Made by a program: the position numbers and the translations under genes
Sequence record: MT446416.1
Origin: Escherichia virus TH47
Length of the DNA stretch: 64,000 nt
Strand: one strand, 5' to 3'
Shown here: positions 2,378-59,484 of the stretch, one piece after another
Layout: each line of letters starts with the position of its first letter
Position numbering within the stretch: the stretch's first letter is position 1
The notes under the pieces: generated by a model
What the model saw: the letters and a program-made list of their open reading frames with translations, nothing else
Databases searched by the model: none
Told to the model about the DNA's origin: nothing

Positions 2378-4579
2378 TTAACTGTTTCTCTCACCTTGGG
2401 TGTTTTCAGAGATAGTTCTTAGATAATTATTTGTCTGTTGTACAGCAGATAGTGATTGTTCATTAACATCGGCAAGCTTTTTGAGTATTTCTTTCATTTC
2501 ATCAGAAATCGGTGCTGGTGGACCAGTTCTCGATGTCACTGCACTACCATTATTTATCATCTTCTTAATTGCCTCTGTATCGTCAGGTTTTGGTGGAACT
2601 GGTGGTTCACCTGGTGCCCATGCAGTTTTATCAAAATCTTTACGAGATACAGTTATTTCTGGAGCAACGTTATTTGTTTTTTCAATAACAGGGCGAATGC
2701 GTTCTACACCTGGACGGTTGAATAAACTGTCAGCATAGTCAGATGGTAGTGGTGCTGGTTCTTTGTAGTTACGTGCGGTGTTCCATTTATTGAACTTATC
2801 CCACATTCCTGCAAAATAATCACTAACACTATTTACTCCATTGTCAATGATGCTGTTTACGCTTTCTGCTGGGGTTTCAGTACTGTTATTGAGTTTTATC
2901 TCATTATCAGAACCACCACCGAACCAACTTTTAACAGAATTCCATAGGTTACCAGGTAAATCCATTAAGTTATTCATAAAGGTATCAAATGCTTCTGACA
3001 CTTTAGTGTAACCTGAACCGAATATATCTGCACCCAATCCATCCAACCAAGCTGTAAATTCAGCACCAATACGATCAAGGTAAGCAATTGCATCTTTAGC
3101 AATAGGTACTAACCCAAATCCATCAAGAGCCAATTCCCCAATAAACTCCCATGCACCATCAGTTCTGTCTGCAATGTCAGAAAGATAATCCACAATTGAA
3201 TTTTGTGTATTAGCATACATTATATTAAATGGTTCAGTGAATTCTTTACTAATCCACATATTGAAGCGGTTGGTAAATTGAGTTAATTTATCAGCCGGAT
3301 TATTTTGTGCAGCATTGAATCTGGATTCTGCGGCTAGAAGTTCTTTAATTGCAGCAGCAGAAGCAGCCCCTTCAGAACCACGTTGTTGTTGATAATACAA
3401 CTCCATTTCCAATTCACTTTTATTCTTCTTGGTATATTCCATTATTTTGCGTTGTAAATCAACGGAACTGGTCCCAGATCTAACAAGTTCAGAAACGTAA
3501 TTACTAAGATCGAACAATTCAGGAGCTAATATATCATCAGGAAGTGCTCCAGTTGTGATTTTGGAGTTTACTATGCTTAGAAGTTTTGGTCCAAAGTCAC
3601 CCATTGCTGCGGAAGCTTCAACTATATTCTTTGCCGCAGTTGCTGCTGCATCAGAAGTTAGTCCACCTACATGTTCAAGTGATATTGCAATTGATTTTGC
3701 GTCAAGTGAATCATCAAGAGAACTAGTTTTATTCAACAGTGAATCTACCGACTCACCCATTGCTTTACTGAAAGTGGTTATTGTTTTTATAAATTGTTCA
3801 GTACTGCGTTCTTGGTTAGAACGCTGTAGTAATTCTTTACCACCCAATATTTTTTGAACTTTAATATTCCTAGCAGTGAGATCAATTAGTGTTTTTTGAG
3901 ATATGCCATATAAACCAAGTTCTTTCTGTGCAAGTTGGACATTACCAACTAAGTTTGCGAATGCCATTGTTCCATCGCCATACAACGCACCCAACTGGTT
4001 TACTGCTTGGGCATGAACTGACACTGCCTCAGAAAACTGATCAACACTCATCATCGCTGCACCAGCACCTTTCAGTACTGAACCATAACCTTCAGCCAAT
4101 GCAACACCAGCACTGTTAATTCTGGTGTATACTTCCAATTGTGCATTAAGGGCATTGTATACAGCAAGACCAGCACCAGTAACGAGTTTAAATGCTGCTG
4201 CCGCTGCACCAATTGGACCTGGCATCATTGCTAATGAACCAGCAAATGAGGATGCACTAACGCCTAATGAGTTTACTACAGTACTTACGTTGTTACTGGA
4301 GTTCATCATTGTTTTGCTTACATTAGAAACTTCAGAAGATAGTGATTTGAACAATTTACCAAATGCTTTCCCGTCATCGGCTTGTGCACTTCCACGAGTT
4401 CCACGATTACTGGAAGAACTGGAACTGGAACCATTCTTTTTACTATTTGAACCTGATTTTTTCTTATCATTCTTTATATTTTCAGCTAATAACTCACGGA
4501 TAGCAGTCAAACTATCATTGTTATCTTTAGTTTGATTAACCAACTGCTGTAGTAGGTAATCACTTGTATTGACAGCCAT
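2378..4579 (-). CDS. Large Ala/Gly/Ser-rich virion protein, tape-measure-like (function uncertain)
   Basis: ORF track start (4777) trimmed to ATG at 4579 with AAGGGA RBS; 733 aa, poly-Ser tract, long Ala/Gly-rich helical low-complexity segments typical of tape-measure/ejection proteins; immediately upstream of portal. Confidence 0.4.
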   Translation of the reverse strand: MAVNTSDYLLQQLVNQTKDNNDSLTAIRELLAENIKNDKKKSGSNSKKNGSSSSSSSNRGTRGSAQADDGKAFGKLFKSLSSEVSNVSKTMMNSSNNVSTVVNSLGVSASSFAGSLAMMPGPIGAAAAAFKLVTGAGLAVYNALNAQLEVYTRINSAGVALAEGYGSVLKGAGAAMMSVDQFSEAVSVHAQAVNQLGALYGDGTMAFANLVGNVQLAQKELGLYGISQKTLIDLTARNIKVQKILGGKELLQRSNQERSTEQFIKTITTFSKAMGESVDSLLNKTSSLDDSLDAKSIAISLEHVGGLTSDAAATAAKNIVEASAAMGDFGPKLLSIVNSKITTGALPDDILAPELFDLSNYVSELVRSGTSSVDLQRKIMEYTKKNKSELEMELYYQQQRGSEGAASAAAIKELLAAESRFNAAQNNPADKLTQFTNRFNMWISKEFTEPFNIMYANTQNSIVDYLSDIADRTDGAWEFIGELALDGFGLVPIAKDAIAYLDRIGAEFTAWLDGLGADIFGSGYTKVSEAFDTFMNNLMDLPGNLWNSVKSWFGGGSDNEIKLNNSTETPAESVNSIIDNGVNSVSDYFAGMWDKFNKWNTARNYKEPAPLPSDYADSLFNRPGVERIRPVIEKTNNVAPEITVSRKDFDKTAWAPGEPPVPPKPDDTEAIKKMINNGSAVTSRTGPPAPISDEMKEILKKLADVNEQSLSAVQQTNNYLRTISENTQGERNS

Positions 4580-4611
4580 AACATTCCCTTTTAATAGATG
4601 TATTATAGAAA

Positions 4612-4619
4612 TATTTATG
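4612..4619 (-). promoter_or_regulatory. Candidate late-promoter -10 box (cATAAATA) for gene 2378..4579
   Basis: Minus-strand CATAAATA about 33 nt upstream of ATG 4579; same ATAAATA core recurs upstream of many structural genes; phage encodes gp55-like sigma. Confidence 0.35.
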
Positions 4620-4672
4620 AATCTATAACGAATAAAAAAGACCCATCTATAACATTTGTCCCATTTTTTGGT

Positions 4673-4680
4673 AATAAATA
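4673..4680 (+). promoter_or_regulatory. Candidate late-promoter -10 box (AATAAATA) for gene 4716..5552
   Basis: AATAAATA 36 nt upstream of ATG 4716 in divergent intergenic region. Confidence 0.3.
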
Positions 4681-4715
4681 CTACAGAGACATTTATTACA
4701 TGGAGATTTAATAAA

Positions 4716-5552
4716 ATGGCAATGAACCCACTAGCTAAGTATACTAAAATTGAAGAACTTGGTACAAAATTGGTCACAAATGGCGTGATTCCTTATAAAG
4801 AAGGAGTTCTTGGCTCTAAAGGTATCAAATGTGGCATTTGTGCTCGTAGTGCACGTGATGAAATGACACTCAATACACCAGATATGCTTCTAAATGGTGA
4901 TGCAATTGCTCGTGTTATTGAAAACTGCGTACCTAACGTACTTGATGCAGATGAACTTTATGTAAATGACGTAGAGCTACTACTTATCGCTATTAAAGTA
5001 GCTTCTAAAGAAGAATCATATGATATTAATGTGACATGCCCTGAATGTAACAAAGAAGGCCGTTTTGAGCGTAGCTTATCATATCTACTAGAAACAGCAC
5101 AAACTTTCAGTGAAGTTCCTACTGTGCAATTGGATAATGGACTAAGTTTAGAGTTTAGACCACTTACTTGGAAGGAATATTCTAACTTCGCAGAAAGAAT
5201 GTTTACAGAACAACAAAAAACTAAATTCCTTGAAACTGCCGAAATGGAGCAGGAAGAAAAAGTTAAAGTGTTTGGTGAAGTATTTGAAAGTATGGCACAA
5301 CTCAACTTTGATATGATCGCAGGAGTTATTGCTAAGGTAATTACACCTGAAGGTGATGAAGTAACTGAAAACGAATTCATTTCTGAATGGCTAGGTCAGC
5401 AGTCCAAAGGAACACTTAAAATAATTCGTGAAAAAATGGATGAAGTACTTGAAATTGGTGTTTCCCATACTATGGAAGTTGAATGCAGTGACTGTAATCA
5501 TCAATGGGAAATTAATGGACTGAAATATGACCCAAGTCATTTTTTCGCATAA
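4716..5552 (+). CDS. Hypothetical protein with three CxxC pairs (possible zinc-ribbon protein)
   Basis: ORF-track start 4656 is TTG; first ATG 4716 has GGAGA RBS; contains CGIC, CPEC, CSDC motifs. Confidence 0.45.
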   Translation: MAMNPLAKYTKIEELGTKLVTNGVIPYKEGVLGSKGIKCGICARSARDEMTLNTPDMLLNGDAIARVIENCVPNVLDADELYVNDVELLLIAIKVASKEESYDINVTCPECNKEGRFERSLSYLLETAQTFSEVPTVQLDNGLSLEFRPLTWKEYSNFAERMFTEQQKTKFLETAEMEQEEKVKVFGEVFESMAQLNFDMIAGVIAKVITPEGDEVTENEFISEWLGQQSKGTLKIIREKMDEVLEIGVSHTMEVECSDCNHQWEINGLKYDPSHFFA

Positions 5553-5761
5553 TGCTTCTCCACTCATCTCCTGAAGAAATACAAGAAGTACTTAAGGAAT
5601 TTGAGTTGAATAAGTCAGATATTAAAACTGCATTAATGGAGTGTTCTGTTTATATGGAAAGTGTTGATTACGGAACACTACTTAATATGCCACTAATTGA
5701 TAGAGACTTATTAGTTAAGTCTTTTAATAAGAAAATTAAAAAACAAAACGAGAAGCACTAA
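5552..5761 (+). CDS. Small hypothetical protein
   Basis: 69-aa ORF; ATG overlaps stop of upstream gene (translational coupling). Confidence 0.4.
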   Translation: MLLHSSPEEIQEVLKEFELNKSDIKTALMECSVYMESVDYGTLLNMPLIDRDLLVKSFNKKIKKQNEKH

Positions 5762-5772
5762 CTCACAAGGAG

Positions 5773-5800
5773 CCAGCACATTGTTGCTGGTTTTTTTTTT
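5773..5800 (+). terminator. Rho-independent terminator
   Basis: Hairpin CCAGCA-cattgt-TGCTGG followed by T10 run directly after stop at 5761. Confidence 0.65.
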
Positions 5801-6562
5801 GGTTTTAAACTACAGAATTGATTGAATTGAATTTTGAAAGGAATTAATTATTTTATAGTGAACTCATCTAACTCATTTCATTCGTTAGCTGAAGAATATT
5901 CGTTACTACGTAACTCATATTCATTTCTTATAATTAATTATAAAGAACTTTAAAAGATTTAATACTTGACGGGATTTGTTGAAGACATTTTCATCCCCCC
6001 GCAGGGGAATGAAGACAATAAAAAAGAGACAATTAAGTCTCTTAATTCTTGACGCTGATGGTTTCAGCATTTATTGTATTGCGAATTTCTTAAAATTCAT
6101 TAAGAACGAAAGCGGGTTGCTCTGTTTCTCTCTATCGCAGTCATGTGCAACGGTCGTCAGTCTTAATCATCCTGACACTCACCTGAAAGTCTATACAATC
6201 AAACTTCAGGCTGTTTATTAAATCACTTAATAAACTCCCTTAGCAAATCTGGTAAGGTGCGATCCTTATACATCTATCGAGGAACTCTCTGTATGCTTAT
6301 CGGAGTTCTTTATTGAGCCGTGTCGCCGTGAGGGGTTCAAACTATGCCCACATCTAACGGGTTTCTTCTGCTCATCGCACTGTTGAACTGCTCATCTGCC
6401 ATCTACATTTTCGATAGGATCAGGTTCTAATTTATATGCATTTCTGCATTCAACAGGATTGTCATCACTACAATTAACATTATAGCACCAAATTCAAAAG
6501 TGTCTCACTATTATGGTAAAAAATTTATAAAAAGTACATAATTCTTGTTATCTGAAGTAACG

Positions 6563-6570
6563 CATAAATA
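6563..6570 (+). promoter_or_regulatory. Candidate late-type promoter -10 box (cATAAATA) for gene 6601
   Basis: CATAAATA 30 nt upstream of ATG 6601. Confidence 0.3.
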
Positions 6571-6600
6571 TTTTGATAAGAATTAGTTTAGTGGGGATTT

Positions 6601-7095
6601 ATGAAGAAAAGATTAAAAGATAGTAAAGAAGCTGCAAACTATCGAAATGAATTACTAAAGAAGCAAAAAGGAATTGATCCTATAATTAAGGAACCAATAA
6701 CTAAGCCAGTACTTGATCACTATCACTTCGAGAATCAACACTGTCGCGGGGTACTCCAGAATGAGATAAACGCCTTTGAGGGTAAGGTTTCCAACGCATG
6801 GAACCGATATGGAAAGCATTTAACTGATATGCCATTACATGAAGTACTAAGAAATCTGGCAGATTATCTTGAAAAGAACAATAACATTCCACCTGAAGAG
6901 CAAGTCATACATCACACTGCACTAACTGTGGATGTTAATAAGTTTAAAAGGCTTCCAGCAACACAGCAAAACGCGATTCTGGAAGGGTTAGGAGTTGTCC
7001 CTGGTAGTAACGTCAAGGAGAGAACTAAGCAAGCCAGAAGGCTCATTAAGGACGGTAAATTAAATATGGTAGATGTAAAAAGAGATACAAAATGA
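6601..7095 (+). CDS. Endonuclease VII-like nuclease (gp49-like His-Me finger; Zn-ligand cysteines absent)
   Basis: LDHYHFENQHCRGVLQNEINAFEG aligns by eye to remembered T4 EndoVII HLDHDHELNGPKAGKVRGLLCNLCNAAEG (D/H/H and N/E catalytic positions kept; the four Cys absent). Confidence 0.5.
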   Translation: MKKRLKDSKEAANYRNELLKKQKGIDPIIKEPITKPVLDHYHFENQHCRGVLQNEINAFEGKVSNAWNRYGKHLTDMPLHEVLRNLADYLEKNNNIPPEEQVIHHTALTVDVNKFKRLPATQQNAILEGLGVVPGSNVKERTKQARRLIKDGKLNMVDVKRDTK

Positions 7096-8114
7096 AAATA
7101 TCATTACCAAACGAAATAAACTTAAAACACATAAATTACAATACAAAAATGCCACAAGAATATTTTGATGATTTAAGTAAGAGATTATCAAAATATGACA
7201 TTATTTTTAATGGATTTATAATTGAAGATGAATGGAAAGGTAATAACACGTTAACTTCTATAGAATGTGAAGGAAACCTCTACAACAACTATCGAATTAA
7301 TAAATTATACAGATATATTAAACGTATGGATACAAAAGGATATCAGAAACCTAAAGGTTTTAACTTAACCCCTGAACTATTGGTACAAAACGTCAACGAT
7401 GAATGTATAAAACGTGGTGGTAAGATTGAATTTATTGGTTATAAACAATTTAATGGTGCAAAAACATATTTGGAATTGAAATGTAATGATTTGGAATCAC
7501 ATGATGAACCATATGAGTGGTGTTCAACGATTTATGATAGTTTTGTCGGAAACAATAGACATTTGAATGGTTGTCATAAATGTTCAGGTAGATATCATTA
7601 CACTATAGAAGAACTTAACAATAATATAAATTATTTTTGTGAAACACGTGGATTCGTAAACCCAGTATTGATAACTAATGAAACTATGAATGGTGTTAAT
7701 AGTATTGTTTCATTCACCTGTCATTGTGGTGAGAAAGCAACGATGACATATGATAGTTTATCACGTGCTCGTTTTTGTATATTATGCAGCGAAGGTAGTT
7801 ATAAACAATATATTCCTGGTTCATTGTATGTATTAGAAGTATATAAAAATGATAAACATGTGGCATATAAATTTGGTATATCAAACTATGTCCCAAAACG
7901 CCTCATGGAATATGGAAAATCTCCATGTAATGTTAAGATTATTCATCAATATGATTTTGAAGATGGTTCTATTCCATATAAAATTGAAAATAAAATAAAA
8001 AACTCATTACCAATCAGATATCTTACCAAAAATGAGTTCGGTGTAGGATATACAGAAACGATAGATACAACTTTATACGAAGATTTAATTAATATTATAA
8101 AAAAGGGAGCATAA
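7092..8114 (+). CDS. AT-rich Cys-rich protein with C-terminal GIY-YIG/T5orf172-like motif (putative homing-endonuclease-like gene)
   Basis: ATGA overlap with upstream gene; markedly lower GC than neighbours; several CxxC/HxC pairs in N-terminal half; C-terminal LYVLEVYKNDKHVAYKFGIS...PKRLMEYG resembles GIY-(10)-YIG plus conserved Arg. Confidence 0.4.
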   Translation: MKISLPNEINLKHINYNTKMPQEYFDDLSKRLSKYDIIFNGFIIEDEWKGNNTLTSIECEGNLYNNYRINKLYRYIKRMDTKGYQKPKGFNLTPELLVQNVNDECIKRGGKIEFIGYKQFNGAKTYLELKCNDLESHDEPYEWCSTIYDSFVGNNRHLNGCHKCSGRYHYTIEELNNNINYFCETRGFVNPVLITNETMNGVNSIVSFTCHCGEKATMTYDSLSRARFCILCSEGSYKQYIPGSLYVLEVYKNDKHVAYKFGISNYVPKRLMEYGKSPCNVKIIHQYDFEDGSIPYKIENKIKNSLPIRYLTKNEFGVGYTETIDTTLYEDLINIIKKGA

Positions 8115-8126
8115 GCTCCCTTTTCT
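8105..8126. terminator. Bidirectional rho-independent terminator between convergent genes
   Basis: GGGAGC-ataa-GCTCCC hairpin flanked by A-run upstream and T-run downstream; stop codon of 7092..8114 lies in loop. Confidence 0.6.
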
Positions 8127-8130
8127 GTTA

Positions 8131-10278
8131 TTAATAGATATCATCAATTGTACAGTAACTTATAGTACTAAAACCATCTTCTTTAGTTACTTTAAGTATA
8201 TGTTCAGTCTTAGAAACTAGTTCTTCTCTATGAGAGATGATATATACATTTTTATTTCTGATAGCAGCCATGTCATTGAAGATTGACCACACTTTAACAA
8301 CACCACTTGAATCAAGACCAACATCACAAGCTTCATCTAGTGCTATTAGATTGATACTTTGGTATAATGACTCATATGTATCACGGAAAGCACATGATAA
8401 AGCAATGTTTACCCTTGTACGCTCACCACGACTAAGCTGTTTATAGTCAAAGTACTGACCACTTTTCTCAATTTCTACACTCAAATCATTCAAGAACACA
8501 ACATTATGTTCAGAACCACACATATCAATGTAATATTGAAGACGTGTATTCAGATACGAAATGTTTTGTTCAATAATACGCTTACGGACATAAGAATCCT
8601 TGTTTAACAACAATTTAACCAAGAAATCTTGGTGATTTGCCATCTTATCAAGGTTATTATAGTCACTATAGTCGATTGGTACTAATGAATCGGTAGTAAG
8701 TGTATTAATTTGTCCAATAAATGTGTTAGTAGTTTTCAATTCACGATCTAATTGCTGTGATAATGAAGTTACTGTCATTTCTAACTCTTTTACTTCAGAT
8801 TTATTCAATGTATCTGGTACTTCTTGAAGAACATGTGCGTTCAGTTCTTCATATGATGACATAAGTTCATTAGCATAGATGTTAATTTGCTCTTCTTCAC
8901 TCTTTTTAATAAGTTCTTGAAGCTTATGCTCATGCATTTGTGCTTCAGTTAGTGTAGAATAGAATGTCACAGGCTTAGGTGGCATATCAAAAATCTCAAT
9001 ACTATCAATTTCCTGAAGTATTGTTTCAATTTCAGAAGTGGAACTATCAATTTTCGATTGAAGTTCATTAATAGTATTTTGAATTTTATCTTTAATAGAC
9101 GAAGTATGTTCATTATGTTCTAATTCGGACATACAAAGTGGACATTTACTACTCTCCACTGTTGCTAATTTGTCCACCTCAGCACGTAACGAACTCTCAT
9201 GACCATTTAAAGCCACCTTTAATGCGTTAAGTTTTTGTTCTTTGAAACGTTTTTGGTTATTATTCTCTTTTAGAATACCCTCCAATTGTTTCCATATCTC
9301 CAACTCATTGTGATTTTCTAATTCAGTACTGATATCAATAGTTTTTAGCTTATCAATACTTACATTTAATGCTAATTTTGCTGTTGCTAGTTCACGGTCA
9401 TATGCATCATACTTCAAAGCTAACTCTTGCACACGTCTTTCTATTTGATCACGAGCAGCATTATGAATAAGAGCTTTCTCTTTCACTTCTGCCAAATCAT
9501 AGAGATCGTTGAAGTCTAAAGTTTTGTAGATATTCAATTCTTCAGTCAACTTAGATACTCTATTATTTTTATCAATCTCAAATTGGTTAGCTTGTTCTTG
9601 TAATGATTCAATACTTTTTTGAATACGTTCATTACTTGCAGCCACAGTTTCAATTTTGAACTTTTCTTGTTCAGCTAAACGTTTAGAATCTTTATACATA
9701 TCCTTTAATAGTTCAGCTTTCTCTGTTAATTGTGTGATGCCCAGAAGTTCCTCAATCATATCACGTTGTTTCTGTGATGATAATGCAAGAAACGGCTCTA
9801 CGTTAGCATTAAGTACTACAATATGTTCAAATAGTAGTTGAGAAATCCCAAGAATCTCGTTTAGATCTTCTTGTGTATCTTTCTTCTCCCCTCTTGACTC
9901 ATCTTCGACCTTATTATCTTTACCTAATGTAATAAAGTTGAAATACGTGGGACTTCTCCCACGCTCGACGAGATATTGTACACCATCTTTCTCGAACTCA
10001 ACAGATACTTCACAGTTTTTAGCATTAGTTTTATTAACTAAGTTTGGAATTTTGATATCGTTACCAATACTTTTTCCAAACAAACCAAAAACTAAACCTT
10101 GAATGATGGCACTTTTACCAACACCATTACGGCGACCGGAACTATCACCACCTTCAATAACTGCATCATTGTTTTGACCAAGAACTAACGATATATCAGC
10201 ACCAGACAAATCAATTACTTGTGGTGCATTGCCAAATGAAAAGAAGTTCCTCATTGATATACGTGTAATGTTTAGCAC
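8131..10278 (-). CDS. SbcC/Rad50-like recombination ATPase (T4 gp46-like)
   Basis: 715 aa; N-terminal P-loop GRRNGVGKS, long coiled-coil middle, CPLC zinc-hook motif, C-terminal LIALDEACDVGLD Walker B/D-loop; GTG start with AAGGGA RBS; follows SbcD-like gene. Confidence 0.85.
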   Translation of the reverse strand: MLNITRISMRNFFSFGNAPQVIDLSGADISLVLGQNNDAVIEGGDSSGRRNGVGKSAIIQGLVFGLFGKSIGNDIKIPNLVNKTNAKNCEVSVEFEKDGVQYLVERGRSPTYFNFITLGKDNKVEDESRGEKKDTQEDLNEILGISQLLFEHIVVLNANVEPFLALSSQKQRDMIEELLGITQLTEKAELLKDMYKDSKRLAEQEKFKIETVAASNERIQKSIESLQEQANQFEIDKNNRVSKLTEELNIYKTLDFNDLYDLAEVKEKALIHNAARDQIERRVQELALKYDAYDRELATAKLALNVSIDKLKTIDISTELENHNELEIWKQLEGILKENNNQKRFKEQKLNALKVALNGHESSLRAEVDKLATVESSKCPLCMSELEHNEHTSSIKDKIQNTINELQSKIDSSTSEIETILQEIDSIEIFDMPPKPVTFYSTLTEAQMHEHKLQELIKKSEEEQINIYANELMSSYEELNAHVLQEVPDTLNKSEVKELEMTVTSLSQQLDRELKTTNTFIGQINTLTTDSLVPIDYSDYNNLDKMANHQDFLVKLLLNKDSYVRKRIIEQNISYLNTRLQYYIDMCGSEHNVVFLNDLSVEIEKSGQYFDYKQLSRGERTRVNIALSCAFRDTYESLYQSINLIALDEACDVGLDSSGVVKVWSIFNDMAAIRNKNVYIISHREELVSKTEHILKVTKEDGFSTISYCTIDDIY

Positions 10279-19279: not shown

Positions 19280-19987
19280 ATGAAAAGTTATTATGGTTTC
19301 ATTTATCAATGGGAAGATAGCACCAATGGTATAAAATACATAGGTTCTCATTATGGAGCAACAGATGACAATTATGTGTCATCTAATGTTATAGTTAATA
19401 GAATTTATAAGGGAAGACCACAGGATTTATCAAGAACAGTTTTAGAATATATTATAGTTGATGATAAGAAATTTTTATTGGAGAGAGAACAAAAATACTT
19501 AGATTTGATATTACCCTCTGAATTGTACACGAGTTTAAACAGAAAAAATAAAACCGTGAAATATTACAACATGAAAAGGAATGCATGTGGTGGTAACGGT
19601 GGTGTAGGAAGTAATGGTATGTTGAAAAATAAAATAAAATATTTTAACAAACATACATTTGAACAAAAATTCTTTAGTAGTACTGACATTATACCAGATG
19701 ATTGGGTTAAAGGTGTACCATCCTCAAAGGTTAGCTGTACTGGAAGCACTTGGTATCTGAATATCAAAACTGGGGAAAATAAAAGATTTAAGAATAATCC
19801 AGGTATTGAATGGATTGAAGGTAAACGTAATATTTCAACAACACCAAAAAAAGTAAACACTCCGTATGGAATTTTTGAAAGTGCATCTGAATGTGGTAGA
19901 CAGACTGGGATAAAACAAGCAACTGTAACGTTTAGGTGTCGTTCAAAATCATCTAATATGGCAAATTGGTTTTATATAGAGGAATAA
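19280..19987 (+). CDS. GIY-YIG homing endonuclease (Seg-like)
   Basis: N-terminal YGFIYQWEDSTNGIKYIGS is a canonical GIY-X10-YIG motif with downstream conserved Arg and Glu; low GC; inserted between conserved baseplate genes. Confidence 0.8.
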   Translation: MKSYYGFIYQWEDSTNGIKYIGSHYGATDDNYVSSNVIVNRIYKGRPQDLSRTVLEYIIVDDKKFLLEREQKYLDLILPSELYTSLNRKNKTVKYYNMKRNACGGNGGVGSNGMLKNKIKYFNKHTFEQKFFSSTDIIPDDWVKGVPSSKVSCTGSTWYLNIKTGENKRFKNNPGIEWIEGKRNISTTPKKVNTPYGIFESASECGRQTGIKQATVTFRCRSKSSNMANWFYIEE

Positions 19988-19990
19988 ATT

Positions 19991-22900
19991 ATGTCACAAC
20001 AAAAAAGACAATCCAATTTATACGCGGGGGAAGATTGGACCCAGGTATATGAAAGCTTTTACAAAATCAATCTCACGGCATTTGATTACGATACCATTCG
20101 TCAAAGTATGATAGACTATCTCCGAACTACATATCCAGATTCGTTTAACGACTGGATTGAGAACGACCAGTTTATTTTTATTCTAGATACAATATCTATG
20201 CTGGGGCAGAACTTAGCGTTTCGTATGGATCTTAATACACGCGAAAACTTTTTAGATACTGCAACTCGTCGTGCATCCGTACTGAAACTCGCAAAAATGA
20301 TTTCTTACTTTCCACGCCGTTCATATCCAGGTCGTGCAGTTGCTAAATTAACAGAAATAAAAACCAACCAAGACGTTCGTAATAGTTTTAACGAATCACT
20401 TAAGGATAAAATCATTCGTTGGAATGACCCAATGGACACAAACTGGTATGAGAACTTCATTCTAGTTATGAACAGTTCATTTGTCAGTACTAACCAATTT
20501 GGTAATCCGGTTAAACGTATCGATATCAATGGTGTTTCTCGTCATCTATATCGCATGAATACAATTCCAATGTCAGCCCCAAGTCTCCCATTCACTGCTA
20601 CAGTTAATGGTGAATCGATGACATTTGAAGTTGTCAACCCTGATATTACGGCAGTTGGTGTTGAAGAGCGTCACCCCGAACCACAAGAGCAAAAATATAT
20701 AGTTTATCAGAATGATGGTAATGGATTTAGTTCACCAAATACTGGTTTCTTTGTTTATTTTGTTCAAGGGACATTGACATACCAAGATTTCCAATATAAT
20801 ATTCGAGAAGAAAACCGAATTCAAGATATCAATGTTGATAATATCAACGAAACTGATGTTTGGGTTCAGGAAATCAACGAAGATGGTATTGTTCGTACTA
20901 AATGGACCAAAGTTCCATCTATGGAAAGTATCGCATACAATACTGTTAACCGTCAACTAAAAACAATCTTTGCTGTCACAACTCGTGATAAAGACCAGAT
21001 TACTATTAAGTATCCTGATTCTCGTAGTGGTGTTGTTCCTCGTGGGACGTATCGTGTATGGTATCGTGTTAGTAATGGTGAAACATACAACATTAAAACC
21101 TCTGAAATCCAGAACAAAAGTGTAAAATACACCTATAGAACCAAAACACAATCAAGCTACGAATCCAGTACTTTGGATATTCGTTTCACATTGCAATATG
21201 AGTCAGATCGTGCACAAAGTGCAGAAACAATTGAACAAATTAAGGCTCGTGCTCCACAAATGTATTATACTCAAAACCGTTTTGTTAACGGAGAAGACTA
21301 TAACATTGCTCCGTTGAGTTTGGGTAACACAGTTCTTAAATCTAAAGCAATTAACCGTTTATATAGTGGTCAGTCACGATTTATTGATATTAATGACCCA
21401 ACTGGTAAGTATCAAAACACTGATGTGTTTAGTGATGATGGTTCAATGTATCAAGAAAAAACACAATTTAATAAATCATTACAATTACCAACTACCAAAA
21501 CAAATGCTAGTATTGCAATTGATAATATTCAGCCATTGATTGGTGAGAATGCTGTAATACAACGTTATCAAGCATATCCACCGAATACAATTGGTATTGA
21601 AATTCAACAAAAATGGACACCTGAATACAATTCTAATTACGCAACTAATACGTATGGTCGTATTATGGGGGCAACAGGTAACGTATTCGTAAATTATCAA
21701 GTTGGTACGTTGATTAAGTTTTCAAATGCTGGAACTACTGTGTGGGCTAGTATTGTTAGTGTTCTTGATAATGGATATTACGTTCTAAGTACTTCAGTTT
21801 CATCAAATATGCAAGCACAAGAGTACATTTTACAATACAGAACACGTTTTAATAGTGTCGAAGTACAAGCAATCTCTGCAATGCTTGATAAAAAGACAGA
21901 TTTTGTTATTATTCATGATAAAGAAACAACTTCTTGGCTTCCATTAGAAATCAGTACTGATGAAGATACTATTTCTTATAATGGAAATGAAGTTCTTGTT
22001 ATGATTAACATCAAATATACTGCTGAAACATGGGAATTTTATGCGAATGGCGTTGAATATGTGTTCGTTGGTGGTGATAAAGTTCGTTTTTACTTCGTTT
22101 CTTCTAAAAAGATAACTGATATTAGTACTGGTAGTGTTCAGAGTGACAAAATTGAAATTTTATCATCAAATACCACAAGTAATAGTAATGCTGGGTTGAC
22201 AAGTAACATAGATTTCCAAATTTATGACACAATTCAACAAGAAAACGGGTATCTTGATGGTTCTCGTGTGGTTATCACCTCTGAAAACGTTGATAGTAAT
22301 GGAATCCCACTAGAACCTAATCAATTCAGAGAAATTGTACCAAATTGGACTGGTGAAGATTCAGTTAAATATGGTGGTATATTGGTTTTCCAAGAAAATG
22401 ATGATTTCACTATATCAGTACTGTCATTACCGAACGATACTTTCACTATTCTTGATTCTTCATGGGCTTATACAATGGAACAGGCACTTGCAGAAACTAA
22501 TGCGTATAAGAGAAGTGAATTTGTTCGCAACAATGCTATTCGCTCAACAACATTGAGTGGTATCTATAGTAAAGGTTCAGGCTTTATGGTTGGCTTTAAA
22601 TACGATGGTAAATATTACTTTATAGAACAAACTGTTGGTAATAATAATGATCGTTTAAACCAATTAATTGAGAACTTGACCTATTCTGATGACACAACTG
22701 CTGCAACTCCTGAACTTGCGTTTTATCGTGCTATTGTTAATATCGGAACTAATGCTGATGCTAACCAAAAGTTAGATTATTATGGTTATAAAGATGTAAC
22801 TTCACAATATACAGTAAAAACGAATGCAAGAACTGGTATTGATTTCCACTGGAAACATTATGCACCAGATGATAATCGCATTGACCCAAGTAGAACAAAC

Positions 22901-45932: not shown

Positions 45933-48900
45933 ATGTACTCGATTAAAACAGATCTCGATATAACTGGTGGTGCAACGGTTGGTAAAGATCTTCTTGTGAA
46001 AGGCGATGCAGTATTCAATAAAAATCTAACAGTTAATGGAACCGTAACTTTTGCTGACGCTGTATTCACTGCGATTGAAGCAGGAACTGTAGACATTTCA
46101 TCTACACTAGATGTTGCTGGTAAAGCATCATTGAATGGTGGGATTGAAGTTCATGGTAATTCCGTAATTGGTAATTTACCAGTTGGCTCTGATACTGCAA
46201 CGATTAATTCTAATGCACAATTCCAAAGCCCAGTATCAATGGCAGGTAACCTAACACAAACGGCTGGCACTGCTGTACTAAAAGATACCCAAGTGGCATC
46301 AATGGATGTTCTTGGAACTTCTTCATTTAAAGGTAATATTACTGCTGAAACTGGCACTACCGCAGCATTTGACAAAATAACTGCAACTGATGCAACATTC
46401 ACAAACACTGCAACTACTGATATCACATCAACTGGAACTGCAAACTTTAAAGATGTGAATATTTCCGGTACACTAGGTGGAACATTTAGTCTATCTGATG
46501 TTAATGCAACAACTCTAACTGTTTCTGGTTTAACCAGTCTACAAGGTGGTGTTACATTAGGTTCCAACATTACTGGTGTGAATAGTAGTGCAAACTTCCG
46601 TGATATTAAAATTGGTTCCAATGCTGCAAACACTAACTACCGTTTGAGCTTTAACTATTCTGCTCCAAGTCTTCGTCCAACTGTAATTCTACAGAACGAA
46701 ATCCAATCAGAATTGATGTCTCCAGCTACCCTAAGTGTATTGAAAACTGCATCTTTTGGTGATTCGTCATTATCCACTTTTGGTATTACTGGTAATGGTC
46801 TAAACAAACTAGATTACCTAACAGTATCTGGTAACTCTGTTCAAGATCCAACAACTCCACTATTACAAGTAACTTCAGGTAAAACTAAAGTTCATGATTT
46901 CGAAGTAACAGGAACTGCAACTATTCCTAACATTGAAAGTACTGGAACTGCTAATTTTAATAACATCAACGTATCTGGTACACTCGGCGGTACTTTCAGT
47001 CTTGATGATATTGAAGCAAACACTCTAACTGTTTCTGGATTAACTAGCCTTGTTGGTGGTGTAACTTTGGGTGCTGATATTTCCGGTGCTAATAGTACTG
47101 CTAATTTTAAAGCAGTAAGTTTAGGACAAAACGCAGCCGATGCTAACGTTAAGTATGGTTTTGCTTATTCTGCCCCTGGTGCACGTCCAACTGTAATTCT
47201 ACAAAATGAAATTCAGTCTGAACTAGTATCTCCAGCAGTACTAAATGTACAAAAAACTGCTACCTTCGGTGATGCATCTCTTGCAACCTATGGTATCACA
47301 GGTAACGGTCTAAACAAACTAGATTATCTATCTATTACTGGTAATGGTACACAAAGTCCAGCAACGCCACAACTACAAGTAGCTGGTAAATCAGTACTAA
47401 ATGATGTTGAATTCACTGGTACTGTAACTGGCCTAACAGTTGATGTAAGTGGTCAAGACCTAACTCCTAAATCTGTTGTTGCTGCTGAAGCAATCAAAGG
47501 ACAAACCCTTGAATCTGTTGGTCAAACCACCGTAGGAACTAACCTACAAGTTGGTGGAACAGCTAATGTTGTTGGTGCACTAACTGGTACTGCTGCAACC
47601 TTTACTGGTGACGTAAGTGCTGCTAAAGGTACTTTCAGTGGTGATGTTAGCGTTACTGGGCAAACTGTAACTGTACGTGATTTAGTAGTAACTGGCACAA
47701 CTACTGGTGTAACTGCCCAAGCTGACGTTGATGGTCTTGATATCGCCCCAAATAAAGTTGATGTTACAACAACACTATCTGTTGCTGGGGACACTACTTT
47801 AGCTGGTCTAACTGCTAGTTCAGTAACAAGTACTGGTGATGTTACTGGTGCGTCTGTATCTGGTAATACAGTAACTGCGGCTGGTGCACTATCTGGTGGT
47901 TCTCTTGCAGTAACTGGTGCTGGTTCTATGGCTTCACTAACTGTTCCAAGTATTACTGGGGACACTACTTTTGCTAATAACGTAACTATTACTGGAACAC
48001 TAACTCCGAGTAGTATAGATTTAAGCACTACTGATGTAAGTGCTGCTTCTTTAACAACTACTGGTAACGTAACTGTTGGTGGTTCTCTTGCAGTAACTGG
48101 TGCTATTGATTTGTCTGCTGCTGATGTAGTAACAAAATCAGTTAGTGCAACTAACCCAAGTACATTTGGTGTAATTAATGCATCTTCTGTTGCCGCAACT
48201 GGTGACGTTTCAGGTGGCACTCTAACTACTACTGGTGCAGCGAAAGTAGGAACACTAACTAGTACTGGTGTAGTATCTGGTTCGCGTTTGTCTTCTGGTA
48301 CTGCAACAATCTCAACTTCTGTAACAGTTCCAACTTTACAAGCTGAAGCTGCTGGTGCTGGTACACTAAATCTAGCAAGTAATGTTGTCGCGGCAAAAGA
48401 TCTAACTGTCACTGGTGTATTCAAACCTGAAGGTGGTCTTGACCTAACAACTGTTGATATTACTGCAAACTCACTAACTACTACTGCTGATGTTAATGTT
48501 GGTGGAAACTTAGTAGTTGATGGTACTTTTGACCTAAGTGCTGCTGATGTATCAGTTAAATCTCTTGTAAGTGCAGAGGCAATTACTAGTGGTGGTGTGA
48601 TTACCGTTACCGATTCAACCAATACTAGTTCGTTCCCTAAAATTACTTCAACTGATGCAACACTCTTTACAGTAAATGCAGGTACTATTAATGCAACTGG
48701 CAACAGTGTACTACAAAGTGTATCAGCTACTCAAGTAACTGCTACTAGTGCTGAATTTTCTGGTAGTGGCCTTGGTCTTCAAGTTGATAATGATGCAAAC
48801 GTTGGTGGTGCATTATCTGTTGGTGGCATTGCAACTGTTGGTTCTTTAACAACAACTGCTGCTTCTCTTAATATTGCAAAAAATACTGCAATCAATGGTG

Positions 48901-50891
48901 ATTTAGCTGTATCTGGTACACTAACTGCTGGTTCAATCGACCTAAGCAATACTGATGTAACCGTTAAATCTCTTGATTCACTAGGTAACGCACACATTGC
49001 TGGTAACCTAACTGTTGATGGTGCATTCGACTTAAGTGCAACTAACCTTGTAGCTGCAAGTCTAGCAAGTACTGGTTCTACTACTGTTGGAACTGATCTA
49101 GTACTAACAACTGGTGTTGTGACTGGTAGCCCAGCTATCTCTGGTAATACAACAATCGGTGGAACTCTTGGTGTAACTGGTGCTGTTAACCTAACTGATA
49201 TTGTTAATATCGGTAAGAAAGTAACAGTGAGTACTGGTGGTATTCAGGTAGTTGATGGTGGTATCAATACTAACACAATTAACGTTTCTGGTGCTACTAC
49301 TCTAGCAGGAACTTCCATTACTGGAACTTTAGGTGTAACTGGTGCTTCTACTCTAGCAGGTGTATCTGCAACATCACTAACAGTTTCTGGTGACAGTACT
49401 GTTCAGAAACTAACTGTCCAAGGTGAATTGATCCCACAAGGTGGTCTTGACCTAAGCGGTGCAGACATTACTGCTAATAGTCTAACTACTGCAACAACTA
49501 TCAATGCAACTGGCCTAAGTACTCTAAGTGGTGGTGTTAGTACTTCTACTGTGACTGCATCTGGTCTAGCAACTGTTGGAAGTTTAACTTCTACTGCAAA
49601 CGCATCAGTTGGTGGTAATTTGGGTGTAACTGGAACTCTAGGTGTTACTGGTGCAACTACTGTATCTTCACTAACAGCTACTGGTGCAGTGAAAACTGGT
49701 ACAACCCTAACTGTTGGTACTCCAGTTGGTGAACAACCTGAAACTGTACAGATCATTCCAGATACTTATATTGCTGGTAAATTGCGTGTAATCGGCGGTA
49801 TTAACGCTGATATTGATGTTAGTGGTCAAACACTAGAACCATATGCAATTGAAGCTGCTGCAACACTATCTGCTGTTGGTAACATTACTTCTGGTGCAAC
49901 CATCGTTTCTAAAGCTGCAACAATTGGTGATGTTGGTTCACAAAACAACAACCTAACTGTTAATGGTAACGTAGTAACTAATGGTGACTTCACAGTTACT
50001 GGGGTACTAAATGCACAATTGAACCAAGCAGATTCCGATGTAGCTGTTAAATCTTTAACTGCAACTAATAACGTTGCGGCTGGTACTTCAATCACTGCTG
50101 GTACTTCCATCACTGCAACTGGATTACTTAAAGGTAATACTTTAGAAGTTACTACTACTGGTTCATTTGGTGGTGCAGTAACTATGTCAAGTGGTGCAAA
50201 CATCACTGGTACAGTGGGTATTACTGCTGGTGACCTAACAGTAGGTGGTAATATCTCTGCAACTGGCACTGCTGGATTCGGTGCAACAACCGTTTCTACA
50301 ATTACAACATCAGGTTTGGCTACACTTGCAAGTACATCCGTTACTGGTAACGCAACAGTAGGTGGAACACTAGCAGTAACAGGAGCACTAACTGCGAATG
50401 GTAACGTAACATTAGGTGACGCAGCGGCTGACGTTCTAACCGTTAATGCAACTTCATCATTTAAAGAAAATGCTGTGTTTGATAAGGCAGTAACAGTAAC
50501 TGGTGAACTAACCACTACTAATGCTAACTTAACTACTACAACAGTAACTACCAAAAAGTATGATGTAATCCCAACTCAAGTTACATCATCAGTAATTGCT
50601 CCAACCGGAACATGGACTCCAGATGGTACAAGTAACGTGTACTTCATCACTCTAGACCAAGATACCACGTTGGCTCCAATTACTGGCCTAATTGGTGGCG
50701 GTAAAGCTGCATCAGTATACATCTATGTTAAACAAGATACAACTGGTAACAGAAACTTTACAACTGATGGTACTTATGCTGTTGTTGATGGTGAACTAAA
50801 CAAAACTGCTGGTAGCGTGACCATTTACCAAGTAATTTATGATGGTGTAAGTCCAGTTACTGATTTGTTCATTGCACAACGTACTGCTTAA
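45933..50891 (+). CDS. Giant repetitive fibrous protein (1652 aa), long tail fibre or whisker-like
   Basis: GGAGGG RBS; extremely Thr/Gly/Ala/Val/Ser/Asn-rich beta-type low complexity with repeated about 35-aa modules and a 170-aa tandem duplication; followed by chaperone-like gene. Confidence 0.6.
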   Translation: MYSIKTDLDITGGATVGKDLLVKGDAVFNKNLTVNGTVTFADAVFTAIEAGTVDISSTLDVAGKASLNGGIEVHGNSVIGNLPVGSDTATINSNAQFQSPVSMAGNLTQTAGTAVLKDTQVASMDVLGTSSFKGNITAETGTTAAFDKITATDATFTNTATTDITSTGTANFKDVNISGTLGGTFSLSDVNATTLTVSGLTSLQGGVTLGSNITGVNSSANFRDIKIGSNAANTNYRLSFNYSAPSLRPTVILQNEIQSELMSPATLSVLKTASFGDSSLSTFGITGNGLNKLDYLTVSGNSVQDPTTPLLQVTSGKTKVHDFEVTGTATIPNIESTGTANFNNINVSGTLGGTFSLDDIEANTLTVSGLTSLVGGVTLGADISGANSTANFKAVSLGQNAADANVKYGFAYSAPGARPTVILQNEIQSELVSPAVLNVQKTATFGDASLATYGITGNGLNKLDYLSITGNGTQSPATPQLQVAGKSVLNDVEFTGTVTGLTVDVSGQDLTPKSVVAAEAIKGQTLESVGQTTVGTNLQVGGTANVVGALTGTAATFTGDVSAAKGTFSGDVSVTGQTVTVRDLVVTGTTTGVTAQADVDGLDIAPNKVDVTTTLSVAGDTTLAGLTASSVTSTGDVTGASVSGNTVTAAGALSGGSLAVTGAGSMASLTVPSITGDTTFANNVTITGTLTPSSIDLSTTDVSAASLTTTGNVTVGGSLAVTGAIDLSAADVVTKSVSATNPSTFGVINASSVAATGDVSGGTLTTTGAAKVGTLTSTGVVSGSRLSSGTATISTSVTVPTLQAEAAGAGTLNLASNVVAAKDLTVTGVFKPEGGLDLTTVDITANSLTTTADVNVGGNLVVDGTFDLSAADVSVKSLVSAEAITSGGVITVTDSTNTSSFPKITSTDATLFTVNAGTINATGNSVLQSVSATQVTATSAEFSGSGLGLQVDNDANVGGALSVGGIATVGSLTTTAASLNIAKNTAINGDLAVSGTLTAGSIDLSNTDVTVKSLDSLGNAHIAGNLTVDGAFDLSATNLVAASLASTGSTTVGTDLVLTTGVVTGSPAISGNTTIGGTLGVTGAVNLTDIVNIGKKVTVSTGGIQVVDGGINTNTINVSGATTLAGTSITGTLGVTGASTLAGVSATSLTVSGDSTVQKLTVQGELIPQGGLDLSGADITANSLTTATTINATGLSTLSGGVSTSTVTASGLATVGSLTSTANASVGGNLGVTGTLGVTGATTVSSLTATGAVKTGTTLTVGTPVGEQPETVQIIPDTYIAGKLRVIGGINADIDVSGQTLEPYAIEAAATLSAVGNITSGATIVSKAATIGDVGSQNNNLTVNGNVVTNGDFTVTGVLNAQLNQADSDVAVKSLTATNNVAAGTSITAGTSITATGLLKGNTLEVTTTGSFGGAVTMSSGANITGTVGITAGDLTVGGNISATGTAGFGATTVSTITTSGLATLASTSVTGNATVGGTLAVTGALTANGNVTLGDAAADVLTVNATSSFKENAVFDKAVTVTGELTTTNANLTTTTVTTKKYDVIPTQVTSSVIAPTGTWTPDGTSNVYFITLDQDTTLAPITGLIGGGKAASVYIYVKQDTTGNRNFTTDGTYAVVDGELNKTAGSVTIYQVIYDGVSPVTDLFIAQRTA
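46431..47450 (+). repeat. Tandem direct duplication (2 x about 510 bp) inside fibre gene
   Basis: Units begin at 46431 and 46941 with the same ACTGGAACTGC...TTTAA...ACACT.GG.GG.AC.TT.AGTCT...GAAGCAAACACTCTAACTGTTTCTGG pattern; protein repeats TGTANFKDVNISGTLGGTFSL... / TGTANFNNINVSGTLGGTFSL... Confidence 0.6.
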
Positions 50892-50911
50892 TAATTATAA
50901 TAAAAAAAACG

Positions 50912-50935
50912 GTGTCATCAATTATGGTGACACCA
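50912..50935 (+). terminator. Possible terminator hairpin (weak U tract)
   Basis: GGTGTCA-tcaattatgg-TGACACC stem-loop after stop at 50891; T-run weak. Confidence 0.3.
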
Positions 50936-50957
50936 TCTTAACAAGTGAGGTAGTTAT

Positions 50958-51737
50958 ATGTTTACATATGTAAAAGGTAGTTCTAAAGAAAATTATGAAT
51001 TGGGTAACATCATCTCCAACCCAGTTGGTGTTAAGGGTTTAAAAGAACGCCCTGGGGCAACTCCAGATGATGAACAAACATATCGTTATTTGTACAGTGA
51101 TATTCGTGCACTTTATGGTATTTCAAGTAAAGATGGTTCTGAAATTGAACCTAATAACGCTGTTCGCAAAGAAGAGGGTTTCTGGTGGTTGGAATATAAG
51201 AATGTTGGTAATGTGAACGCAATTAATGAGAATTTGGAATATATTAAACTACAAGATAGTAATCAACCAGTCATCACATTCTTAGAAGAAGCAGAAGGTG
51301 AATATAAAGAGTTAACAGTACTGAAAACTTATAATTATGTTGATATGGACATTGCAGCAGTTAAATCTGATCTGAAAGCACGCACAGTATCATCTCGTAG
51401 TGATCGTATTAATGCTGGTTATATGTTTAACGGTCATCGTTATAGTACTGATCTAGCTGGTCGTCAAATGCTTCTTAATTATTATACACAAGTAACTTCC
51501 GGTTCTGATAGCGTTTCGATTTTCCTTGATGACGCAATTGTAAAACTATCTGCTGCTGAAATGACTCAACTATACACTGAAGCATTTGCTATGGTTGAAT
51601 CCCTATTTGCAGAGTGTAATAAGCAATGTGCTGACATTGATGCAGTTCCTGATGCTGATGAAGATGCAATTTATAAAGCACAACAGGCGGCTGTATGGGT
51701 ATATGAAGGTATTGATATTCCTGAGCGTACTCGTTAA
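50958..51737 (+). CDS. Putative tail-fibre assembly/chaperone-like protein
   Basis: 259 aa immediately downstream of giant fibre gene; C-terminal region reminiscent of tail-fibre-assembly-like proteins; weak assignment. Confidence 0.35.
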   Translation: MFTYVKGSSKENYELGNIISNPVGVKGLKERPGATPDDEQTYRYLYSDIRALYGISSKDGSEIEPNNAVRKEEGFWWLEYKNVGNVNAINENLEYIKLQDSNQPVITFLEEAEGEYKELTVLKTYNYVDMDIAAVKSDLKARTVSSRSDRINAGYMFNGHRYSTDLAGRQMLLNYYTQVTSGSDSVSIFLDDAIVKLSAAEMTQLYTEAFAMVESLFAECNKQCADIDAVPDADEDAIYKAQQAAVWVYEGIDIPERTR

Positions 51738-51753
51738 TTTATATTTTTTTTAA

Positions 51754-51781
51754 AGGTCAACTATGGTTGGCCTTTTCTTTT
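51754..51781 (+). terminator. Rho-independent terminator
   Basis: AGGTCAAC-tatg-GTTGGCCT hairpin (one G-U pair) followed by TTTTCTTTT. Confidence 0.5.
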
Positions 51782-51788
51782 ATCTAAA

Positions 51789-51795
51789 ATAAATA
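51789..51795 (+). promoter_or_regulatory. Candidate late promoter -10 box (aATAAATA)
   Basis: ATAAATA 35 nt upstream of ATG 51830. Confidence 0.3.
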
Positions 51796-51829
51796 CTTAA
51801 TATATAATCTATTCTGAGGAAATATTTAA

Positions 51830-59164: not shown

Positions 59165-59335
59165 GTATATTTTCCTTTTGTTGGATAAAATCGTTTAGGT
59201 TTCTATTATAGCCAATCCGTGGGCAAAAGTAAAGGAACTGTGTTAAAAGAATTTTTAACTTATCAGTTCCTTTGTTACTTCATGAATCATCCGTGTATTT
59301 AAAAAGGCATTTCTCTTTGCCGTCTTGATGTGGTC

Positions 59336-59363
59336 ATTATATCACATCGTTCAGGCTTGTCAA
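59336..59363 (-). promoter_or_regulatory. Near-consensus sigma70-type promoter, copy 1 (TTGACA-N16-TGaTATAAT with upstream A-tract)
   Basis: Minus strand reads aaaaaaaagttgTTGACAagcctgaacgatgtgaTATAATgacc; directs transcription toward MoxR gene (start 59164). Confidence 0.5.
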
Positions 59364-59429
59364 CAACTTTTTTTTATTTCTTTTTCAATCTCACATCTTG
59401 TGATTTTGAAAACTTGCTTCGTGGTGGTC

Positions 59430-59457
59430 ATTATATCACATCATTCGGCGTTGTCAA
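59430..59457 (-). promoter_or_regulatory. Near-consensus sigma70-type promoter, copy 2 (tandem duplicate)
   Basis: Minus strand reads aaaaaaaaagatgTTGACAacgccgaatgatgtgaTATAATgacc; about 94 bp upstream of copy 1. Confidence 0.5.
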
Positions 59458-59484
59458 CATCTTTTTTTTTCTTTATTTTCGAAG

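Follow-up and report, generated by a model that had tools for sequence, protein, structure and literature searches.

The 64,000-nt stretch of Escherichia virus TH47 analysed here (MT446416.1, hereafter the window) comes from an Asteriusvirus-like jumbo phage of E. coli. It carries two intact open reading frames (ORFs), ORF1 (6601..7095, plus strand, 164 aa) and ORF2 (7092..8114, plus strand, 340 aa), which overlap in the four bases ATGA. We put at roughly 0.8 the probability that ORF2 is a free-standing homing gene of the T5orf172 type (GIY-YIG superfamily), lodged at the junction between the genes for an endonuclease VII (EndoVII) homologue and an SbcC homologue, and that ORF1 is the phage's own EndoVII-type enzyme, of a zinc-less kind. 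ORF2 was copied recently, with a few hundred flanking bases, into the 3' end of the EndoVII gene, by a known process rather than a new system. It is assigned to the homing endonuclease genes because sporadic distribution, a fixed site, co-conversion of flanking sequence, and decay in a related lineage are found together.

The best matches to the 3.1 kb around the locus come from the 121Q/PBECO4 (Asteriusvirus) group, including fEgEco12, BF17, and Turkey3, at about 92% identity overall. Against fEgEco12 the window is 99.4% identical over 5500-6740 (1233/1241) and again over 8351-9490 (1133/1140), while identity drops to 73.5% in 6741-7084 and to 71.4% in 8099-8350. The change is abrupt at both borders, at about 6747, where the first mismatch cluster begins, and at about 8349; these borders delimit a left tract made of the 3' two thirds of the EndoVII gene (6747..7084) and a right tract comprising the terminator and the final ~73 codons of the SbcC-like gene (8099..8349). 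Against ph0011, which elsewhere is less closely related, the window is 87.5% (left) and 98.3% (right) identical inside the tract, vs. 88.7% (left) and 86.0% (right) outside it. The encoded proteins follow suit. Residues 1-48 of the EndoVII homologue are 100% identical to fEgEco12, while residues 49-158 are 77% identical to fEgEco12 and 94% to ph0011; the last 75 residues of the SbcC-like protein are 100% identical to ph0011 and 71% to fEgEco12, and the remainder is 100% identical to fEgEco12. ORF1 is chimeric, with codons 1-48 from the backbone and codons 49-164 from a donor allele. Since the identity of fEgEco12 to 121Q is not raised within the tract, fEgEco12 is not the recombinant. These comparisons show that a fEgEco12-like backbone received ORF2, with ~340 bp on its left and ~250 bp on its right, from a donor of the ph0011 lineage. 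Co-converted flanks of this kind (6747-7084 and 8099-8349) are a mark of homing endonuclease genes, and the tract pattern is the one expected of homing, or of gene conversion, with co-conversion tracts.

An earlier note on this stretch had grouped EndoVII, ORF2, and the upstream non-coding region into one horizontally acquired nuclease cassette. ORF1 and ORF2 do overlap and run in the same direction, and the 3' 70% of the EndoVII gene is truly foreign. The synteny comparison, however, finds the EndoVII gene at the same place in every relative examined, with or without ORF2 (fEgEco12, 121Q, EC22.5-2, ph0011, RaK2, and four metagenomic lineages), which makes it a core gene; its GC content, 37.8%, is that of the genome background; the ORF2-less backbone matches codons 1-48 and everything upstream of them at 99-100% identity; and the non-coding region is conserved across the clade, with an RNA gene of its own (see below). 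A two-gene cassette is therefore very improbable. The DNA acquired consists of ORF2 and its co-converted flanks, about 590 bp in all. The proposal of horizontal acquisition is right for ORF2 and wrong for EndoVII, of which only the 3' ~340 bp were imported along with it, and the adjacent non-coding region, 100% identical to fEgEco12 over 5900-6500, is backbone DNA.

ORF2 sits inside the last three codons of EndoVII. In the ORF2-less relatives fEgEco12, 121Q, and EC22.5-2, EndoVII ends in ...NMVDIKKGS*; a terminator hairpin (GGGAGC/GCTCCC) holds its stop codon in the loop, and the SbcC-like gene ends 18 nt away. The EndoVII of the window has the ending ...VKRDTK* instead, and ORF2, starting at the overlapping ATG, ends in ...IIKKGA* with its own stop codon in the loop of the same hairpin, a bidirectional intrinsic terminator (8101..8124) between the convergent ORF2 and SbcC-like genes. 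The insert supplies a new EndoVII tail (KRDTK*) and appropriates the original KKG(S/A)* codons together with the terminator, so that no host gene is broken. Nine genomes of the fEgEco12 group (identity to the window ~92% over the query) do not have ORF2, nor does any other E. coli relative listed; close relatives thus differ in the presence or absence of the gene at one precise site. All five other clusters of ORF2 homologues lie between EndoVII and SbcC homologues on contigs of RaK2-like jumbo phages, and the anatomy of the junction is identical in the window and in the five other ORF2-carrying loci (RaK2 and four metagenomic contigs). The subfamily is tied to one site, the last three EndoVII codons before the terminator shared with the SbcC-like gene.

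An AAGAGA box resembling a Shine-Dalgarno sequence is conserved upstream. A CATAAATA box at 6563-6570, about 30 nt 5' of the EndoVII start, is conserved in the E. coli relatives and looks like the late-promoter consensus of T4, TATAAATA; among the genes of the phage group is one for a gp55-like late sigma factor. The ATGA overlap and these two boxes make it probable that ORF2 is expressed together with EndoVII, in one transcript and with translational coupling.

The phage ph0011 shows a later, decayed stage of the same element. Its EndoVII has the tail typical of ORF2 carriers (KRDTK*), and its ORF2 is reduced to a remnant of ~120 bp in which the start codon has changed from ATG to ATA and 903 bp have been lost by a deletion that joins the two copies of a 10-nt direct repeat, TCATTACCAA; these copies stand at 7101..7110 and 8004..8013 (plus strand) in the intact ORF2 of the window. 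A degenerate copy in one lineage is what a cycle of invasion and decay would leave behind.

It could be argued from the same data that ORF2 is ancestral and vertically inherited, that relatives have lost it, and that the tract reflects their replacement by an ORF2-less allele. Four metagenomic lineages and the distant RaK2 group (Alcyoneusvirus) do share the junction, and ph0011 demonstrates that loss does occur. On this account, however, the 99.4% identity to fEgEco12 right up to the sharp borders is hard to place, as is the resemblance of the tract to the other clade (ph0011), with fEgEco12 no closer to 121Q there; all nine genomes of the backbone clade are without ORF2, and ORF2 could be lost so precisely, with ...KKGS* restored, only by recombination with an ORF2-less allele. 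We consider ancestral inheritance improbable, and recent acquisition by homing remains our preferred reading.

The composition and the domains of ORF2 agree with its being a homing-type gene. Its GC content is 28.0%, compared with a window mean of 36.8% (standard deviation 2.9%, windows of 1023 bp); nowhere else in the 64 kb does the GC content fall to 30% or below, with only 0.05% of windows equally low, and ORF2 has a GC content at third codon positions (GC3) of 18.8%. Twelve of the 340 residues are cysteine. The C-terminal 100 residues match MUG113, of the GIY-YIG clan, at 24.0 bits (cutoff 22.3), and match phrog_681 "endonuclease" at 3e-41. The predicted T5orf172/MUG113 nuclease domain (GIY-YIG superfamily) takes up aa 240-340 (7809..8111, plus strand), and two putative DNA-binding zinc-finger modules of the CapR/DUF4379 type, recognized from invariant alignment columns, lie before it at about aa 105-235 (7404..7796, plus strand). 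Among the six members of the subfamily, T5orf172 is matched by 6/6 (best E 2.6e-7), MUG113 by 5/6, the DUF4379 treble-clef zinc finger by 5/6, and CapR by 4/6; the ORF2 protein of the window itself stays below the E=1 level for DUF4379 and CapR. Invariant across the subfamily are two clusters of Cys and His residues (C131, H137, C161, C164 and C210, C212, C229, C232) and, in the nuclease domain, Y246, Y259-K-F-G262, R270, Y274, E299, G319, and T321-E322-T323, which include the GIY-YIG hallmarks (Tyr/Tyr-Gly, Arg, and catalytic Glu) at Y246, Y259-K-F-G262, R270, and E299. An AlphaFold2 (AF2) model is confident only at residues ~240-340, with predicted local distance difference test (pLDDT) values of 85-92, and by this model the nuclease domain is predicted to have the GIY-YIG fold.

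The ORF2 subfamily is distinct and very small, with an N-terminus of ~100 aa of its own. Besides ORF2 itself, five clusters of homologues were found among 5.8 billion proteins (62, 61, 55, 55, and 48% identity), and a profile search of the same set with the subfamily alignment added one further, distant relative. An exhaustive HMMER scan yielded 3022 representatives of the superfamily at E<=0.001, only 10 of them at E<=1e-30. In the phage collection, the relatives at 48% all belong to the Klebsiella RaK2 group, and the next, at <=28%, occupy other loci of T4-like phages. A search of NCBIfam matched neither ORF1 nor ORF2, no paralogue of either was found elsewhere in the window, and a sequence search of ORF2 against PDB chains gave no meaningful match. 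What the earlier note had read from the letters has held up well at the level of the two proteins: the sliding-window check places ORF2, described there as one of the most AT-rich segments, at the lowest GC content of the window; the cysteine-rich sequence and the C-terminal GIY-YIG-like motif have their counterparts in the 12 cysteines, the MUG113 match, and the invariant residues; and both proteins are nucleases by fold, the model of ORF1 matching EndoVII (see below) and the C-terminus of ORF2 the GIY-YIG clan.

Homing would operate during co-infection. The ORF2 enzyme would cut an ORF2-less allele near the EndoVII/SbcC junction, recombinational repair of the break would use the ORF2-carrying genome as its template, and the repair would copy ORF2 and flanking donor sequence into the recipient. 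The strongly diverged flanks of ORF2-carrying alleles may hold changes that protect them from cutting. The free-standing GIY-YIG (Seg) and HNH (Mob) homing endonucleases of T4-like phages are intergenic selfish nuclease genes of low GC content. ORF2 shares with them the presence/absence polymorphism between close relatives, the co-conversion of flanking markers, and the low GC content; it differs from Seg proteins, in which a canonical GIY-YIG domain is N-terminal and other DNA-binding modules are used, in having a C-terminal nuclease of the T5orf172 branch.

A closer likeness is found in the putative T5orf172 homing genes of ICP1, T5-like, and Aeromonas phages, which are described at the limits of exchanged DNA (Barth, Dunham & Seed 2023, PMC10448857). 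There, too, a C-terminal T5orf172 nuclease follows zinc fingers of the CapR, DUF723, or DUF4379 type, and the genes are free-standing beside essential genes, at an exchange boundary between related phages. The ORF2 subfamily differs in being a set of six clusters at >=48% identity whose next relatives stand at <=28%, in occupying one site only, in RaK2/121Q-like jumbo phages, and in being fused to the last codons of the host gene. A domesticated rather than mobile ORF2 could also be considered, for example a sequence-specific nuclease or repressor directed against competing phages or satellites, on the model of ICP1 Odn or PLE CapR: zinc fingers of the CapR type are repressor domains in PLE, and ICP1 has co-opted a T5orf172 nuclease (PMC10448857). 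At 48-62% identity, the catalytic residues of ORF2 are also kept by purifying selection. The gene nevertheless has a selfish life cycle, with its sporadic distribution, its fixed site, its co-conversion tracts, and one lineage in decay, and domestication without mobility is unlikely. One protein could fill both roles, the cutting of ORF2-less competitors being marker exclusion as well.

Several observations weigh against the reading of ORF2 as a homing gene beside a zinc-less EndoVII. The T5orf172 score of ORF2, 17.4 bits, lies under the curated cutoff of 20, and its MUG113 score is barely over the cutoff. The N-terminal half of the full-length model is poor (pLDDT 31-57), and Foldseek with the full-length model returned nothing significant. 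RaK2 belongs to a different genus and has the identical junction, as would also be expected if the gene had long been inherited vertically and lost at times. Identity to ph0011 in the left tract is no higher than 87.5%, which makes the true donor an unsampled one. The zinc independence of ORF1 is deduced from sequence.

ORF1 is the resident EndoVII homologue, matching phrog_423 "endonuclease VII" at 1e-35. Its Pfam score for PF02945 is 17.7 bits and does not reach the curated cutoff of 23.6. The characteristic motifs are LDHYH (aa 38-42) and NAFEG (aa 57-61), and in an alignment with T4 gp49, for which residues 39-106 were confirmed, the residues D40, H41, H43, R54, N62, and E65 of T4 EndoVII are kept as D39, H40, H42, R49, N57, and E60. 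The zinc ligands C23, C26, C58, and C61 of T4 align with D26, I29, Q53, and I56, and the sole cysteine of ORF1, C48, aligns with none of the four. The alignment agrees with the earlier note that ORF1 keeps the His-Me finger and is without the four zinc ligands. The AF2 model (built with 64 homologues) has a mean pLDDT of 94.5, and Foldseek matches it to T4 EndoVII 1e7l_A with E 6.7e-7, probability 1.00, and a template modelling (TM) score of 0.65-0.67 over 157 aligned columns; its only significant PDB matches are three T4 EndoVII structures, each over the whole chain, the next hits having E>1.

The replacement of the zinc cysteines is a clade-wide, selected state and not decay, since ~115 of the 119 homologue clusters share it with a conserved pattern and the catalytic set is kept. 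The Cys4 site (CX2C ... CX2C) is missing in these clusters, cluster P0118 being one that retains all four cysteines; the positions are held instead by Asp (D26 in >90% of clusters), then I/L/T, then Q/D/E/N (position 53), then V/I/C/S, and the six catalytic or active-site positions are retained in essentially all 119. The loss of cysteines described in the earlier note is thus real at all four ligand positions and is not peculiar to ORF1. A decaying or catalytically dead relic could be suspected on the grounds that the C23S and C61S mutants of T4 EndoVII are inactive and do not bind DNA (PMC6083498) and that the Pfam score is under threshold. A relic would hardly be expected to keep its active site throughout the clade, to conserve the replacement residues themselves, to be modelled confidently with full-length EndoVII topology, or to remain syntenic across genera, and we hold this to be highly improbable. 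Because the Cys4 site is absent here and in most of the clusters, ORF1 is best filed as part of a zinc-less branch homologous to EndoVII and not as a typical member of the family. This branch seems to keep the His-Me-finger site and the whole T4 EndoVII architecture, the fold being held without the Cys4 zinc.

Compared with T4 EndoVII (gp49; PDB 1en7, 1e7l, 2qnc), ORF1 has the same His-Me-finger active site and the same full-length fold, including the helical C-terminal part, and its phage likewise has T4-like gp46/47 and gp55 homologues; it differs in being without all four zinc cysteines, in its low identity (~20-28%), and in falling below the PF02945 threshold. By homology to gp49, it is presumably the phage's own junction-resolving and packaging nuclease. 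Catalytic domains of the EndoVII type can be recruited as homing enzymes, as is shown by the homing endonuclease F-CphI of cyanophage S-PM2, whose catalytic motif is that of EndoVII (PMC6083498). ORF1 differs from F-CphI in being universal and syntenic, in having the full EndoVII architecture, and in showing no presence/absence polymorphism; the mobile gene at this locus is ORF2.

The non-coding region upstream of EndoVII, outside the acquired DNA, contains a candidate gene for a structured RNA of ~455 nt on the minus strand (6017..6506, the RNA running from about 6472 to 6017), recognized by its promoter, its terminator, and covariation. The promoter, conserved on the minus strand and close to the sigma-70 consensus, consists of a -35 box GAGACA (6506-6501) and an extended -10 box TGnTATAAT (6487-6479). 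The terminator is a covarying stem (6043-6024) followed by a U-run, with U-G pairs on the minus strand only; a second conserved hairpin lies at 5990-6013. The stretch 5762-6600 is 99-100% identical to fEgEco12 (100% over 5900-6500), and nucleotide conservation of the region persists in metagenomic relatives whose SbcC-like proteins are only ~53-56% identical. The single-sequence folding energy is not distinctive (z = -1.4); the evidence for structure is comparative. An alignment of 17 sequences folds at -70.2 kcal/mol on the minus strand vs. -53.6 on the plus strand, with compensatory changes in 45/86 vs. 33/86 pairs. Paired cells make up 98.0%, vs. 83.6% in shuffled alignments and 41-45% with slid partners, and there are 210 double-change cells, vs. 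58.5±6.1 in shuffles; none of 500 shuffles (0/500) reaches the observed values. A plus-strand orientation, first prompted by invariant G-U pairs and TTGACG boxes, was rejected: the ratio of G-U to A-C in covarying pairs is 37:5 for the minus strand vs. 8:16 for the plus strand, and promoter and terminator fit the minus strand.

The RNA is accordingly a candidate, well supported by comparative sequence evidence, for a new class of structured RNA of ~455 nt. A search of Rfam with the RNA in the window and at six other loci found no family, and it does not resemble either of two non-coding RNAs that RNA-seq has defined in the related jumbo phage PA5oct, ncRNA001 and ncRNA002; the viral RNA motifs proposed in PMC10690425 (>10,000 candidates) may include it among those without a name. 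The 21-mer at 6110-6130 occurs twice per genome in several jumbo-phage contigs of IMG/VR, phage 121Q has a second copy of the RNA in an unannotated gap of 612 bp, and a prophage of Citrobacter amalonaticus has one copy, flanked by the genes for a serine integrase and a CI-like repressor. From this moron-like distribution, with at least two copies in 121Q-like genomes and a prophage copy, one may speculate about a role in conflict between phage and host or between phages. Elsewhere in the window, two tandem 57-nt repeats (59330-59386 and 59424-59480) read as near-consensus sigma-70 promoters on the minus strand (TTGACA, 16 nt, TGnTATAAT), in a style shared with the promoter of the RNA gene.

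It is likely that a large, hitherto undescribed structured RNA has its complete gene in the non-coding region, and that the locus as a whole is a hotspot for accessory elements around the zinc-less EndoVII. The EndoVII neighbourhood is a repeated landing site, because EC22.5-2 (OR845138) has a different homing-type gene just upstream of EndoVII. This gene (3101-4072 of that record, minus strand; corresponding to about 6559-6600 of the window) encodes 323 aa, with DUF723/DUF4379 zinc fingers and a DUF2726 nuclease-like C-terminus. The window itself has a second free-standing gene of the homing-endonuclease type at 19280-19987 (plus strand), between baseplate wedge genes. Its product of 235 aa (MKSYYGFIYQW...KYIGS) is of the canonical GIY-YIG, Seg-like kind, with a weak match to the I-TevI DNA-binding domain; the gene is missing in fEgEco12 and stands in a window of ~31% GC. 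A one-sided divergent tract adjoins it at 19974-20300, with 83-86% identity vs. 98-100% beyond.

The wider surroundings agree with the placement, in the earlier note, of the locus between structural and recombination modules. Upstream are a pb2/tape-measure-like gene, a gp26-like baseplate hub gene, and a small conserved ORF, and downstream of ORF2 are the convergent SbcC/gp46-like and SbcD/gp47-like genes. The first of these, for a recombination nuclease subunit (8131..10278, minus strand; phrog_77 at 8e-107, AAA_23), is resident, with a chimeric 3' end. Within the pb2/tape-measure-like gene (2378-4777, minus strand), which is otherwise 95-100% identical to fEgEco12, an 800-bp block at 3301-4100 is only 46-75% identical; it is another mosaic exchange, possibly with an effect on the tail-tip protein. 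Dense families of direct repeats (47-50 nt and ~170-220 nt) at 46431-53211, with G-x-x-rich coding repeats, are typical of a repetitive tail-fibre or whisker-like protein. A scan of the 64-kb window for tRNA and tmRNA genes found none.

It is largely on the strength of genomic patterns that T5orf172 genes have been put forward as homing endonucleases, and the locus described here is an unusually clean example, with a 99.4% identical recipient backbone, a donor tract bordered to the base pair, an intact gene, and a decayed sister copy. The recognition site would be confined to the few hundred bases that differ between alleles, so that the homing hypothesis is directly testable. If the locus is indeed a hotspot, the RNA gene, the T5orf172 homing gene, and the DUF723/DUF2726 gene of EC22.5-2 would be independent accessory elements gathered around one nuclease gene. 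The zinc-less EndoVII clade would represent a natural experiment, a His-Me-finger resolvase that does without the structural zinc essential in T4. Elements such as ORF2, as this event shows, also reshuffle the ends of essential recombination genes, here those for EndoVII and SbcC, and so give rise to chimeric repair enzymes.

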